Shown here: one piece after another, positions 29,487 to 49,783 of the stretch | Position numbering within the stretch: position 1 is the first letter of the stretch | Layout of the letters: each line of letters begins with the position of its first letter | Program-made: the position numbers and the translations under genes | Notes under the pieces: model-generated | The model's input: the letters and a program-made list of their open reading frames with translations, nothing else | Told to the model about the DNA's origin: nothing | The model's database searches: none | Origin: Isurus oxyrinchus | Taxonomy: Eukaryota | Length of the DNA: 64,000 bases | Direction: 5' to 3' | NCBI GenBank assembly: GCA_026770705.1 | Contig: JANJGN010000301.1 | Location: 372,001-436,000 of the forward strand

Positions 29487-29928
29487 ATGCATTTCGCGGT
29501 ACAAATGAATCTACTCCCCATCATTCTGGTGTTACTAACTTGTAAGTGTAAGGGATATATTCAGTAAGCTGTAGAGAGTGTCTATTTATACACATGTTGC
29601 TTCAATGTTCGCTGTCTGAATGTTTTTACAGGTCAATGTCGCTCAGAATAGGTGTCCCAGTTTCCCACTGCGAAAACAGTCCAGAGCGGGGATTCGGTGC
29701 TGATAAACTGTACCCATGACATGTCCAGCTTTAACGGAATGTACTGGTACAAACAGAAATCCGGTCAGGGACTGAAGTGGAAAATAGGCAGATTCTCGGC
29801 TGGCAAAGGGATGAATGACCGGTTCGATTTGGAACTTTCCACTGAGGACAAACGGGACCAAATGGTTATTGAGAAGACGGAGAGCGCGGATACCGCTGTG
29901 TATTACTGTCCCATAAAGCCCCACACTG
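29487..29928 (+). pseudogene. TCR V segment (family C) pseudogene
   Basis: Leader MHFAVQMNLLPIILVLLT 29487-29541; exon from 29632 with TAG at 29649; ...MYWYKQKSGQGLKW...DTAVYYCPIKP. Heptamer CACACTG 29922-29928 but no nonamer at 23 bp. Confidence 0.88.
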
Positions 29929-43782: not shown

Positions 43783-45484
43783 GTTTCATTACAGATACAG
43801 ATGGCCACAGCAGGGAGTGTCGGACTGAGGGGGCAGTTAGTCAGTGCGGTCTTTGCAATGTGCGGAGCTTCATTTCCTGATTGTTTCCCAGGGAACCAAA
43901 AGAGACCCTGAGTGCTTATTTTATGCTGTTGTGGGATGATTCTTGAAGAACATTAATATAATTATACAGTAAAGTCCAGTGCTTAAACTGGTTTCCACAA
44001 TGTCGGCATGTATACTCTTGTCCCAAATTATGACCAGTTATCTGAAAGAATGCAACTGCGGGTGAGATTTCCCCCTCCTCTCTTGTGTCTCGCATCAAAA
44101 TATTAACCAAGTTCGAAACACAAACAGAAAGTGCTCGAAATACAACAAGAAACAGAGCGAAAACTCCAGCCTGTGACCTTTCACCAGAAACCAGCAACTC
44201 CTCAAACTGAACTCAAGTGAAATGTCGTAGACATGAATCCTTACTTCTGATTCGCTGTGCACCGATGTTCCCCGATTTGCCGAGTGTGGCCATGATCTTC
44301 TGTCATTATACCGCAAAGAAATTTGGATGGGAGCAGAAAAGCTGATAATTAGACTCGCTTCTGATGATAGAGCCCAGCCAAGTGAAAGTCAGCAGCCATT
44401 CTTATTTCTAACGAGCTGTGGGTCGAGAGTTCATTGTATGTCAAGACAATTTTGAGCCAGATGGGTTTTCAAGAGTAAATTTCATGTTTCCTGTCCATTA
44501 ACCCTGTTAAAAACATTCCTTCAATTCTTCCATTTTCTCACTTGCTTTCTGTGTAGGGACACTTTTCTCAAGTAGAAATTATATCGTGCTATAAAATCAT
44601 TGAATCGTCCAGTGATTATATCGCAGATGGAGACCGTTCGGCCCGTGCTGACTCACTTCAAGTGCAATTTACCTGGTCCCGGTCTTTTCTCTCTAGCTAT
44701 GCATTTTTTTTGTTTGCTTTTCTGATTATTCATTAATTCCCTATTGAAATGAACGATTGGATCTGCTGCCACCACGTACTCAGACTGTATATTCCAGATT
44801 TGGATTACTCAGTCTATGGAAAAAGGTTTTCATCATGTCGCCGTTCGCTCTTTTGCCAATCTCTTTATATCAGTATCCTCTGGTGCTCAATCCATCCTTA
44901 GCTACACTGCCTATTTCCTGAATTTTTATAATCTCCATAGCTTGCCTAACCCATCCACGTAACTGAAAGTTATTTAAATGGTCCATTCCCATGAGTCTAT
45001 TTGGCACCCTCTTTCATGCCTCTACATCCCTCCGAAACTGCGATGACCAGAACAGAGCACAATACTCCAGTTGAGGCCGAGTGTTTTGCACAGTTTGATA
45101 AAAATCCCCTTGTTTTTATCCTCTATGTCCTACTTATAAAGCCCTGCACGCCGTATACTTTTGTAATTGATTTGTCAATCTGCTCTATTCGATAAACTCA
45201 CACTTGGGTGATTATGAATCGGCCAAATACGCATTTTTCCTGGGAAATAAAGGACGTGAGAACGTGAAATACTTTCACGAATTATATTTACTGGAACATT
45301 GGACGGAGAGGAAAATTGAAGGGTGGGAGGAGCGAGAAGGAAATGCAGAGCTCATCAGTTTAATCACTTTATCCTATGCGGTAAAATGCTAACAACCTTT
45401 GAGAAAATATTCTTGAATAATATTTGTATTCCCAACATCTCTGCACTCTGTTGCCATTGTCTGACTCTAATCCCACCATGTTCA

Positions 45485-45895
45485 GGGTTTTGGACAGCTC
45501 TGTCCCTGCGCTGTATCACTGTGTGTCTGTAATCCTAGTAAGTTCAGGTTTTTGTACAGGTCTGTCCCTGCGCTGCATCACTGTATGTCTGTATCCCCAC
45601 CATGTTCAGGTTTTTGTACAGATCTCTCCGTGTTCTGTATTACTGTGTGTCTGCAATTCCACCATGTTCAGGTTTTCGTACTGCTCTCTCCGTGCTATGT
45701 ATCACTGTGTGTCTGTAATCCCACCATGTTCAGGTTTTTGTACAGATCTCTCCGTGTTCTGTATTACTGTGTGTCTGCAATCCCACCATGTTCAGGTTTT
45801 CGTACTGCTCTCTCCGTGCTATGTATCACTGTGTGTCTGTAATCCCACCATGTGCAGGTTTTTGTACGGCTCTCTCCCTCCTCTGTATCACTGCG
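45485..45895 (-). repeat. Tandem array of seven 23-RSSs (62-bp period)
   Basis: Nonamer (reverse complement) starts at 45485, 45547, 45609, 45671, 45733, 45795 and 45857. Each is followed by exactly 23 bp and a heptamer (rc: cactgtg, cactgta, tactgtg, cactgtg, tactgtg, cactgtg, cactgcg). Confidence 0.95.
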
Positions 45896-45900
45896 CTGTG

Positions 45901-46193
45901 CGGCCACTCAATGCACAGTAATACACAGCAGAGTCGCTTAGCTGTAGTTTGGAGATATTTAACCGGTTGATTTTCTAGGCATAATCGATAGAAGCAGAAA
46001 TTGTCAGCATTTTCTTTATTCTCCTCTCCTGAAATGTGTTTCTGAAGAGGATATTCCTGAGCGTGTCCTGGGGAATGACGGTACCAGAGAACTGTGTAAT
46101 GACAGAATCCTGAATATTCATAGCTTAAAGTATGGGTTTCACCAACAGCAGAGGTTTTTAGAGGCGGATCCTGGGATATCATTGAACGATAAT
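45901..46193 (-). pseudogene. NAR-TCR supporting V-delta (leaderless, CDR1 Cys), pseudogene
   Basis: Acceptor ctgcag|46193. DYRSMISQDPPLKTSAVGETHTLSYEYSGFCHYTVLWYRHSPG...(frameshift) ISASIDYA*KINRLNISKLQLSDSAVYYCALSG. First Cys changed to Tyr. No leader seen; in phase with the J at 48882. Confidence 0.85.
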
Positions 46194-48881
46194 CTGCAGG
46201 AGAAAAATTGGATATTATTCTTTTTAGCTACTGTTTATTCGAGGAAACTTGTTTATCACAGTAGGTGTTCTGGCTTTGGATGAAGTTTGTTTAATTTGTA
46301 ACTTCCTCTAACTTCATTCACCGTTACTGAAATATGAACCAGTGAAAGGATGAGGTTTTTTTTGTGTTTCACTGCGAGTTCTTACTATTTGGCATGCATT
46401 GCCTGAAAGGATAGTGAGCTCGGTTAAGGGTATTCTCCAAACGTGTAATGGACAAGTGTTTGTTGGAACACGAATAAACGCAGGACCACGGGGAGAAAGA
46501 GTGATGGGTTAATTGGGTTGCATTTTTAGAGAGGCAGCACTGACACGATGGACCGCATTTCAAACTGCCGTGCTGAATTTAATGGGCATTACATTTCTGT
46601 TTCTATTTTTCCAGAGGACACATTTTATTATCAGTGGGACAATCAATTCCCAAAAATTATTGTCCAAGACTAACCGAACTGTGTAGCATCAGTGAGCACA
46701 GCAAGATCCAAAATAACCTCATGAGATTCATCAGCACCGTTTGGGCCAAACCGATAGTGAACATCGGTGGACAAAAGTGCTGAAGTTTAATAAATTCGGG
46801 AGTTTCTGAGCTTTTTGATCTACTGCTCTATATTCAACTAACAATAGGGCCCAATTTTCTCCGTCTCCTTTTAATTTGAAATATTTACAGTTAGTTTCAT
46901 TTTATTTTACATTACCTTTGTGCTGTTTGTGCTTTTTGCAATCATGGGAACTTGTCCCAAAGTCTCTCGGTTGTCGGTTGGGTTCAGTCTGTTCAGTTTC
47001 CGCAGTGGTTTTACTGTTACTCACTGGGAACCGCCTCTTCCGGCTCCCTGACAACTTCAATTCTTTCCGCCCAATGACTGATTCTGAGCGCGTTCTCTGG
47101 GCGGAGTTTTCTAGAATTTTGCATTATACACAATCTGCAGAAGAGAAATAGGCCATTCGGCCTAACTGATTGATGCCTATGTTTAAACTCCAGACCAGCC
47201 TGCCCTGCCCGAAATGTAAATGACCATTTCGATCCACGTCCTTCTGCCTGTCTATTCCGCTCTCCCTCTTGTATTTTCAAGTCTTCTCATAAATCCATCA
47301 ATGCTCCCTGCTCCAGCCAGTCCATGTGACCTCCAGTTCCGCATTCTGATACGTGTTGATGCAAATGTTTTCTTCTTAGTGTCTTTATGTTTTCAGTTAG
47401 TGGCCAGTTTATAATAATCTCCTATTGCTCTGGACTCGGCCACAAATTAACCGTTGCTCCACTTCCACCCGAATGAACCCTTCATAATAAAAAGGTTTCG
47501 TTGATTTCTCCTCGTGATTTCCTCTTTTACAGAGAACAATGACCCAGCTTGTTCAATCTTTCCAGAGAGACGTGGATTGTTGCTGATTTCATTTCTCAGG
47601 AATGTAAGAAATCAAAGCAGAGAACGTAACAAAGAGAAGGAGGAGGTGCCACAGCTCCTCCATTCAATAACATCGTGGCTGATCTCCGTCTTAAACATCA
47701 CATTACAGCAATGTCCAAACAACCCTATATTCTATCGAATAACGCTTTAAATAGAGTCAGCACTGAGTATCCAAAGCTCTCTCAGGAACAAACTCACAAC
47801 AATGGTTTGACTTCTCCTCTTCTCAGTTCTAATGGCCGAATCTTTCTTCTGAAACTTTGACCCATAGTTATAGACTTCCCAGCCTTGGGAAAAATCCACC
47901 GGGAATCTGCCCTGCCCTCCATTTTGCATGTTTTTGAATGAGATTACCTCTCAATTCCTCGAAACTCAGGGGAACATTGGCCCAGCCTATTCAATCTCTT
48001 CTCATAAGACAATCCCTTGACCTCAGGAATCACTCTGATGAACCTTTGTTGCATTCGCTCCAAAGGAATTAGATCTTTTCCTAACGGTGAGGTCAAGGCT
48101 TTACCTAGCATTCCAGGCTGGAGCCCGTTGCGGCCATCCCCTCCATAAACCTCACCCCCAACCCTCACGCCGGAAAGCATTTTGAACGGCCCCCTGAGAT
48201 CATCCAACCCTTCTCTTCATTTCGATTATTATTGTTCCCTTATGTTCTTGTTCTTCTTTATCACTTTAGTGCATCATCCTCACTCTCTCTCCGCTCAGGC
48301 TTGTTTTAATTCACAGAAACCGGAGATACAGATAAATCAAAGCAATCCGATCTCTGAAACATCTGCACTTAAAATAATAAAAGTCAGCGGTTCCAACCTT
48401 AAAAACGATTAGGATTGTGAGTCCGAGGCATTGATGGTTCCTGATGTGTCAACGAAACCAATAATGATCCATGTGCAACGAACCCCTATGCCCCACCCAA
48501 CCCTTCCTTCCCTCGCCCACCGCCCTACACCAAGACCTCCACCCACCCTGACCACGCTGAACGCCTAGTCCGTCAGGTCTCACACATAGTTTCGCCCAGA
48601 CATCTGACCTGACTCCCTAATCCGATTCTGATCCCAAATCGAAAAAGGCAATGGAGAGGCTTCCTTAGAAAACCCGTCAGTTTTCGTTTTATTGGGACTA
48701 GACTGATAATGATCACAATAATAACTAATAAGCAGACGGTGAACATTACCCTGGACAGGCTGTAACGCGACGGGTGGGAGTCGGGGGCAGGGGGATAAGT
48801 GGTAAGGCGGCGGTTGGGGGGTGGGGGGGTGGCGGGGAGAGGGCGGGGTGCGGTAGGGCGGCTGCGGTTGGATTCACTTAC

Positions 48882-48973
48882 CGGCTGTGACAGTCACCAC
48901 CGTCCCGGATCCAGCCGCATAATCAGTAACCCACCACAGTGACACCGCTCACAATCTCCCCGGTACAACAACC
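48882..48973 (-). other. NAR-TCR J segment with 5' 23-RSS
   Basis: Coding 48934-48882 WVTDYAAGSGTVVTVTA followed by G|GTAAGT donor. RSS heptamer 48935-48941 (CACAGTG on +), 23 bp, nonamer ACAACAACC 48965-48973. Confidence 0.88.
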
Positions 48974-49287
48974 ACCGACACCTCAACCTGCCGGCAAATC
49001 ATCATCAGGCAGTAGAAACTGCCCAAATATGCAGCGCATTTAAATAAACAACGTTATTCAATGTTTCAAAGTCTCTGTCGCTTCAAGCTGTTCTTTGTGA
49101 GGCCCTGAGGCCTGAGCAAATGGTGCCGGGAACGAGATGTTCGCTTCATGTAAACCGAGAGAAATATCAAAGAAAGATAACTGAATGGTGGAAATTACAA
49201 TGAAATGTAACCAGATTCCAGCGATAATAACATCGACCCGACAATTCACCATTTGGGCCATGATAATTTATGTTTTAATTGTACAGA

Positions 49288-49783
49288 GTTATTTGTTCAG
49301 GCCTTTTCCACTGTGCTTTACCAATGTTGTGCCACTACTGACGTTTACAGTAATAGGTGGCCGTGTCTTCAATTCTTACATCCCGAATTTCCAGCAAAAA
49401 TGTCTTTCTTGTTTTGTTCACCGACACAACAAATCTTCCGCCGTCGAGGATCCTCTCCCGCTCTGTCCCAGTCTCGATGTTTTTGAAGAAATGTCCCGCT
49501 TGCAACTAATGCCGCTAATAGAAAACACAAGCGGTGGTAAGAGACTGACACTCCTTCCTGGTCACCGCTGCCGGGATCTGTGACACTGACTGACTGAAAG
49601 ATCCTGGAAATTAAACAAAGAGAGTTCAATAGACCATCGAAGTCGAACCAGAGAACGATGTCAAAACCCCAGACAGTGTCTGTAATGGGGATGGACTCGG
49701 GCAGCTTTATATTGAATCCACACAATGTCGGTTTGTTTGATCGGTACTCACGGGGTAAACAGACACACAAGGAGGATTCCCAT
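49288..49783 (-). pseudogene. NAR-TCR V (IgNAR-like V), apparently V-D germline-joined, with 12-RSS; pseudogene
   Basis: Leader MGILLVCLFT 49783-49752 (gtgagt donor, phase shifted). Exon 49603-49316 reads GSFSQSVSQIPAAVTRKECQSLTTACVFY*RH*LQAGHFFKNIETGTERERILDGGRFVVSVNKTRKTFLLEIRDVRIEDTATYYCKRQ*WHNIGK. RSS CACAGTG (49315-49309) + 12 bp + ACAAATAAC (49296-49288). Confidence 0.87.

Follow-up and report, generated by a model that had tools for sequence, protein, structure and literature searches.

The closest described counterpart of the locus studied here is the shark NAR-TCR (Criscitiello 2006). As citing papers describe it, it comprises a leader, a NAR V with a cysteine in the a-b loop and no Trp at the WYRK position, and its own J, followed by a leaderless supporting V-delta with a CDR1 cysteine, and our locus follows the same plan. 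The same descriptions have the two V domains formed in separate somatic VDJ events, whereas many units here are pre-joined as VD or VDJ and, unlike in that description, several NAR units can precede one V-delta.

Germline joining itself is familiar from Ig clusters of cartilaginous fish, of VD-J, VDJ and VJ form, including NS4 light chains and IgM1gj. As described (PMC2193156, PMC4279169), these resemble the present case in having split and joined genes side by side, several independent joins, retained introns, some pseudogenes and a history credited to RAG in germ cells. In shark NS4 light chains, repeated RAG-like germline joining is described for around 10% of 50 genes (PMC2193156). Those clusters are B-cell Ig, whereas the joined genes described here are in TCR, with a chromosomal signal joint retained.

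Further comparisons come from other TCR loci. In marsupial TCR-mu, a germline-joined V (V-mu-j) lies behind a rearranging V-D-J in tandem clusters, and leaderless VDJ NAR units occupy an analogous place here. V-mu-j is VH-like, its origin is put down to retrotransposition, and it serves as the supporting domain itself; VDJ units of the shark type, in contrast, keep their introns and precede a separate, rearranging V-delta. Germline-rearranged TCR V genes are likewise known as a pre-joined V-J in newt TRD (PMC12698447), a leaderless, expressed unit, and among catfish TCR alpha/beta genes (PMC6170632). Both involve conventional TCR Vs, the newt having a single unit and the catfish genes being attributed to transposition, and the portions of the two papers at hand make no mention of partial V-D joins. 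No report of germline-joined NAR-TCR was found in the literature searched, although joined cassettes may already have been described in the primary NAR-TCR papers or the supplements to them.

The NAR-TCR cassette of the window

The window, by which we mean the whole 64-kb stretch of DNA analysed, contains one cassette with the following features.

49752-49783, minus strand: NAR-TCR leader exon, aligned with paralogue leaders; 32 nt instead of 43, with an 11-nt deletion and frameshift
49604-49751, minus strand: leader-V intron of 148 nt, GT and AG ends kept
49347-49603, minus strand: NAR-type V exon to the second Cys, with two in-frame TAG codons in CDR1 (VNAR matches in PDB; Pfam V-set)
49325-49346, minus strand: portion of the tail derived from V, about 22 nt, with a third in-frame TAG (17 of its first 20 nt match an unjoined V tail)
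49316-49324, minus strand: junction remainder of about 9 nt, probably trimmed D and/or untemplated bases (no extant D matches above control)
49288-49315, minus strand: 12-RSS homologous to the D 3' RSS, its spacer common only to the 31-nt joined family
48974-49287, no strand assigned: D-J intervening sequence, homologue of the interval in unjoined cassettes (85.6% over 382 nt, 49315 to 48935; up to 88.5%)
48935-48973, plus strand: J 23-RSS (heptamer 48935-48941, nonamer 48965-48973)
48882-48934, minus strand: NAR-TCR J segment with intact GT donor (up to 96.6% to paralogue Js)
46194-48881, minus strand: intron from J to V-delta, collinear with the 31-nt joined family only (81-82% over 2.57 kb)
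45896-46193, minus strand: supporting TCR-delta V, a pseudogene with the CDR1 Cys kept (81% to an intact paralogue)
45468-45895, minus strand: 62-bp tandem repeat, 6.9 copies, every unit based on a 23-RSS

On the minus strand, YYC ends at 49347 and is followed by a 31-nt tail (49346-49316), the heptamer CACAGTG (49315-49309), a 12-bp spacer and the nonamer ACAAATAAC (49296-49288). An earlier note on this DNA had read the tail, heptamer and 12-bp spacer in the same way, and two of its other observations also hold: the remaining V RSSs listed by the window scan have spacers of 22-23 bp, and a J with a 23-RSS lies some 315 bp away (314 bp from the 12-RSS nonamer), with no RSS-flanked D found between V and J in a relaxed scan. 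The scan employed the generally known RSS consensus. Within the 64 kb the 12-RSS is the sole 12-spacer RSS with at most two mismatches. Shuffled windows gave 0.09 matches each, and 8 of 100 shuffles contained at least one anywhere, so that the motif by itself is modest evidence and the case is carried by its position and homology.

The gene is very probably a decayed NAR-TCR cassette, probably in a TCR alpha/delta locus of a cartilaginous fish. The marks given for NAR-TCR in PMC1845163 are a cysteine within the a-b loop and a lack of Trp at the WYRK position; in the window V the cysteine is present and the Trp absent (RKEC and HFFK in translation). The best single-domain PDB matches of the window V fragment are VNARs, and for an intact paralogue the 23 PDB matches at E <= 1e-15 bear the name VNAR or NAR in 21 cases, and the names Nanobody and Antigen receptor in the remaining two. 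The supporting V-delta with its CDR1 cysteine lies about 3 kb downstream of the NAR V (46193-45896), no match was found before it in a search with the NAR leader type, and conventional TCR-type Vs with 22/23-RSSs surround the cassette. The NAR marks, the supporting V-delta and the VNAR matches point to a cartilaginous fish as host.

The window copy is a pseudogene, with a frameshifted leader, three in-frame stops and a broken V-delta, defects that the earlier note does not mention. In the V-delta the first Cys is changed to Tyr, there is a frameshift and a stop, and the proximal heptamer has CGC in place of CAC. The V-delta 23-RSS lies within the 62-bp tandem repeat, which is also present in paralogues, so several intact RSSs stand behind the mutated proximal one. 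At 49506, run X12 of organism B has a Tyr codon at the position of the window's second CDR1 stop, and part of the decay may therefore be recent. Two runs presumed to be of RNA gave no records over the junction stretch, which speaks neither for nor against expression. Elsewhere in the window, conventional TCR-type Vs with stops or frameshifts are found in both orientations (14874, 18211, 55114, 60071, about 15800 and about 29900), the one near 29900 having no clear RSS.

Unjoined and joined paralogues in the same genome

A search of the same genome gave 484 NAR-TCR V candidates, 150 of which were scored and classed by alignment to one unjoined cassette, and the paralogue counts are for that reason lower bounds. 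Among the scored Vs, 73 are unjoined, 43 V-D joined, 25 VDJ joined and 9 other, a joined share of around 45% (68/150) as against the figure of around 10% given for NS4 genes. Several small contigs resemble haplotype copies; scaffold C26, given alongside, has 31 unjoined, 17 VD, 14 VDJ and 4 other (n=66).

The order in an unjoined cassette is V, a tail of 16-26 nt, a 22-RSS, a 392-bp spacer, a 12-RSS, D (mostly 15-20 nt), a second 12-RSS, about 382 bp, a 23-RSS and J. All 73 unjoined cassettes share a homologous V-D spacer, with 83-95% identity to one reference among the listed blocks, and no part of this spacer was found anywhere in the 64-kb window. One cassette has its V-D spacer split by an insertion of about 2.5 kb (C26:35966557-35969475), and in six others the spacer alignment is lost at the same point.

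The distance between the D and J heptamers is nearly the same in unjoined and VD cassettes (medians 382 and 381). Every one of the 43 VD copies aligns over D-J from the D 3' heptamer onwards, and both the V-D spacer and any heptamer remnants are absent. When the window is aligned with the D-J interval of the unjoined copies, as the earlier note had proposed, the alignment begins exactly at base 49315 (85.6% over 382 nt) and identifies the window 12-RSS as the D 3' RSS; as that note had anticipated, the unjoined copies have a 12-D-12 arrangement. Two of its premises need correction, however: the tail it called long is mostly ordinary, given the tails of unjoined NAR Vs, and these Vs use a 22-bp spacer and not the 23-bp one of its V-23 rule.

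The window tail divides into two parts. With 17 of its first 20 bases matching an unjoined V tail, about 22 nt are V, leaving a remainder of about 9 nt in which Ds score 1-3 against a control maximum of 4 (44 V tails); it is here that the case for the window copy is weakest. The partly fixed CDR3 of the earlier note consists of this ordinary V tail and the remainder. The parent D of the window junction was not found above control among extant Ds. As the putative remnant of D does not outscore the control, the D origin that the note proposed stands on the RSS and flank homology, and not on coding sequence.

Other joins are more legible. A complete D of 15 nt sits in the 43-nt join, exact at 15/15 nt (control maximum score 4). 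Exact remnants are also seen in the 28-nt join, with 15/15 nt from a D of 17, in the 33-nt join (8/8) and in a second 31-nt join (6/6), while in the 26-nt join the D is not recognisable. A join of 41/42 nt, seen in four places outside the 150 and compared by eye, consists of the whole V tail, 2-3 extra bases and the whole D; in the 41-nt form these are a 22-nt tail, 2 extra bases and a 17-nt D (again by eye). There are at least seven distinct V-D junctions, two of them with a whole D. Coding-end marks (D remnant, P or N bases) are thus seen in sister families, and none is recognisable at the window junction.

In the C242:385-549 kb region, blocks are repeated in an array and each V-delta is accompanied by two to four NAR units. 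The VD-joined units of the 43-nt type within it have a J without a GT donor, and in several the leader region is replaced.

Origin of the V-D join

The junction pattern of the window has 14 matches in the assembly including the window itself, nine of them at separate C26 loci, and none in the control. Twelve members of this 31-nt family were compared and are 96.6-100% alike. The window differs from one of them by 14.2% in the promoter, 15.8% in the leader intron, 19.1% in the V, 16.1% in the tail and RSS, 13.8% in the D-J interval and 12.0% in the J intron. The join is therefore very probably germline, as the earlier note proposed, on the indirect evidence that 13 near-identical paralogues share the junction yet differ by 12-19% from the window copy.

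It might be supposed instead that the assembly caught the somatic V-D rearrangement of a lymphocyte clone, possibly hypermutated. Contig C301 is unplaced, copies above 86% are absent from the rest of the assembly, and divergence is highest in the V exon, all of which would fit. The junction is nevertheless common to the 13 paralogues, and the divergence extends over non-coding flanks several kilobases away; hypermutation was rejected as the source of the differences on the latter ground. In run X1, which may be the source sample and so not independent, a DNA contig bridges the junction (49205-49411, 1 difference) at a depth of 35.7, like that of its neighbour (30.9). Organism B, finally, has matches of 96-97% on both flanks, the junction being uncovered there (three runs at 90% likeness, two at 80%). 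A somatic origin is thus extremely unlikely.

Compared with unjoined cassettes, the window copy has lost the V-D spacer of 392 bp together with the two RSSs belonging to it, and retains the leader intron, the D 3' 12-RSS, the D-J interval and the J. The leader intron is also kept in five of six other cassettes checked. A retrotransposed rearranged transcript, as proposed for marsupial V-mu-j in TCR-mu (PMC7615758, PMC3457774), would provide a precedent for a joined V, but is excluded by retention of the 148-nt leader intron, alongside which the copy keeps its promoter flank, its D-J interval and its J intron; we give it practically no credence.

Most likely the V was fused to the D position through RAG in a germ-line cell of an ancestor. 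The cuts would have fallen at the 22-RSS of the V and at the 5' 12-RSS of the D, and a single ancestral join would then have spread by duplication of the cassette, the window copy later drifting by some 12-19% and dying. A precise 12/23 signal joint is a hallmark of RAG, and one is present in the family. In two of the nine cassettes classed as other (C26:29964819, L046; C242:380224, L139), the heptamer of the D 5' 12-RSS is fused bluntly and head to head to that of the V-delta 23-RSS, with the D, J and V-delta between the RSSs deleted. The flanks of the two copies are 88.7-92.2% alike, which points to one old event, inherited and duplicated. Genome-wide, the signal-joint pattern matches these two copies and five satellite sites.

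The five further matches, on C21, were rejected as belonging to a satellite of about 44 bp. At C21:80.56-80.64 Mb (L205-L208) the satellite units resemble a 12-RSS, many within 2-3 mismatches; each of the four stretches sampled over about 75 kb contains it, with V or J motifs absent there.

The signal joint belongs to another cassette, and so demonstrates RAG-type activity in the family and not at the window junction. The earlier proposal of RAG in germ cells is to that extent strengthened for the family. We infer RAG as the enzyme and the germ-line cell as the place of the joins. Such joins recur in the family, which has seven V-D junctions or more as well as a VDJ join and the signal joint.

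A germline deletion of the V-D spacer independent of RAG, through unequal crossover, slippage or microhomology repair, would suit a locus full of duplications, inversions and insertions, and a window junction with no recognisable D or P bases. It is less easily reconciled with a D-J alignment that starts at the D 3' heptamer in 43 of 43 VD copies, with no remnant of spacer or heptamer, with at least seven different junctions ending within the V tail and D, or with the existence of a precise 12/23 signal joint, and we regard it as unlikely.

The direction of change was also considered. A V-12RSS facing a 23RSS-J could be the ancestral form, the D cassettes having arisen later by insertion of an RSS-flanked spacer. 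The tree of 111 distinct rows (72 unjoined and 39 VD, five identical rows of 116 having been dropped) is unrooted; the joined and unjoined labels need seven changes on it, and such counts cannot separate gain from loss. The V-D spacer is nevertheless homologous in every unjoined cassette and would need a single origin. The joined copies, moreover, are not one clade (a single clade of all VD copies is rejected with p-AU 1.6e-5, a test that gene conversion could bias), and different D remnants match different extant Ds. Derivation of the D cassettes from a one-step ancestor therefore appears very unlikely.

How closely the window copy is related to the 31-nt family depends on the part compared. 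The RSS spacer is shared with the family, and the J intron is 81-82% identical to it over 2.57 kb, other cassettes reaching 67-70% over long partial matches. Tree support for grouping the window with the family is weak (67/78), and of the 37 columns diagnostic for the family the window carries only 5. In the V (86.3%) and the D-J interval (88.5%) it resembles unjoined cassettes slightly more than it does the family, so that there may have been gene conversion, or else a second join of equal length.

The leader, V and V-delta are intact in most of the 31-nt family, unlike in the window copy. In such intact relatives a single 12/23 step, VD to J, would complete the NAR domain, although the tail ends in an in-frame TAA which that step would have to trim. 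The one-step V(D)-J unit that the earlier note proposed for the window copy fails there, where the gene is dead, and the intact relatives become the candidates for the role. A second J-like motif is found in L033 (C301:109543) and the 31-nt family, about 640 nt past YYC and 200 nt past the J, without an obvious RSS.

VDJ-joined units and possible chains of V domains

Outside the window, the 25 VDJ units have junctions of 85 or 88 nt that resemble one join, and all are in frame. V exons are open in 19 of them, and the 15 distinct VDJ exons listed all keep the acceptor, the donor and four cysteines, one of which is in CDR3. Leaders, in contrast, are dead in 16 of the 19 open VDJ units compared with 4 of 53 open unjoined ones (Fisher p 9e-10, the copies not being independent). 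Rough pairwise estimates of pooled dN/dS come to 0.45 in VDJ units, 0.35 in the intact 31-nt family and 0.74 in unjoined cassettes. In organism B, too, the 85-nt junction can be read by eye in loose-end consensus, where X5 agrees at 27 of 30 letters and X12 supplies 13, which suggests inheritance across species.

The position of these units is consistent. Eighteen of the 25 lie, in continuous sequence, behind a rearranging NAR unit of the same strand with no V-delta between; for six more such a unit is 7.8 kb upstream, the sequence covered being all but 3.3 kb of the way between, and one broken VDJ unit faces an inverted cassette. Translation shows 10 of 11 V-deltas behind VDJ units to be open; the open or broken state was taken from translations, the automatic flags under-calling open genes. 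One to three in-frame, mostly leaderless VDJ exons with an invariant CDR3 cysteine are seen between a rearranging NAR unit and V-delta at C26:37.895-37.915, 38.750-38.769, 31.154-31.165 and 35.936-35.946 Mb and at C140:190-200 kb. As in TCR-mu, there is an in-frame joined exon with splice sites and a dead leader, behind a rearranging unit.

We tentatively suggest, at somewhat less than even probability, that repeated germline RAG joins were followed by recruitment of VDJ units as invariant internal domains, giving a TCR-delta with three to five V domains. The cassette would have the form [leader-V-D-J] - [joined VDJ] x1-3 - V-delta. The invariant CDR3 cysteine of the joined unit would bond with the a-b loop cysteine of the domain above, a bond modelled on the CDR1 cysteine of the supporting V-delta, which is thought to act likewise. 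It is possible that the VDJ units are instead skipped as exons or are slowly decaying.

The window copy is a dead relic, and its value is as a pointer to the family. Close to half the NAR-TCR Vs scored have been pre-joined, with every stage represented, and the retained 12/23 signal joint is an unusually direct RAG footprint in inherited DNA. The family forms a natural series from which germ-line RAG events could be dated, and allows tests of whether pre-joined TCRs are expressed early or form invariant T cells. If the suggestion of internal domains is true, the multi-V TCR-delta, a form we did not find described, would be a convergent counterpart of the V-mu-j of marsupial TCR-mu.
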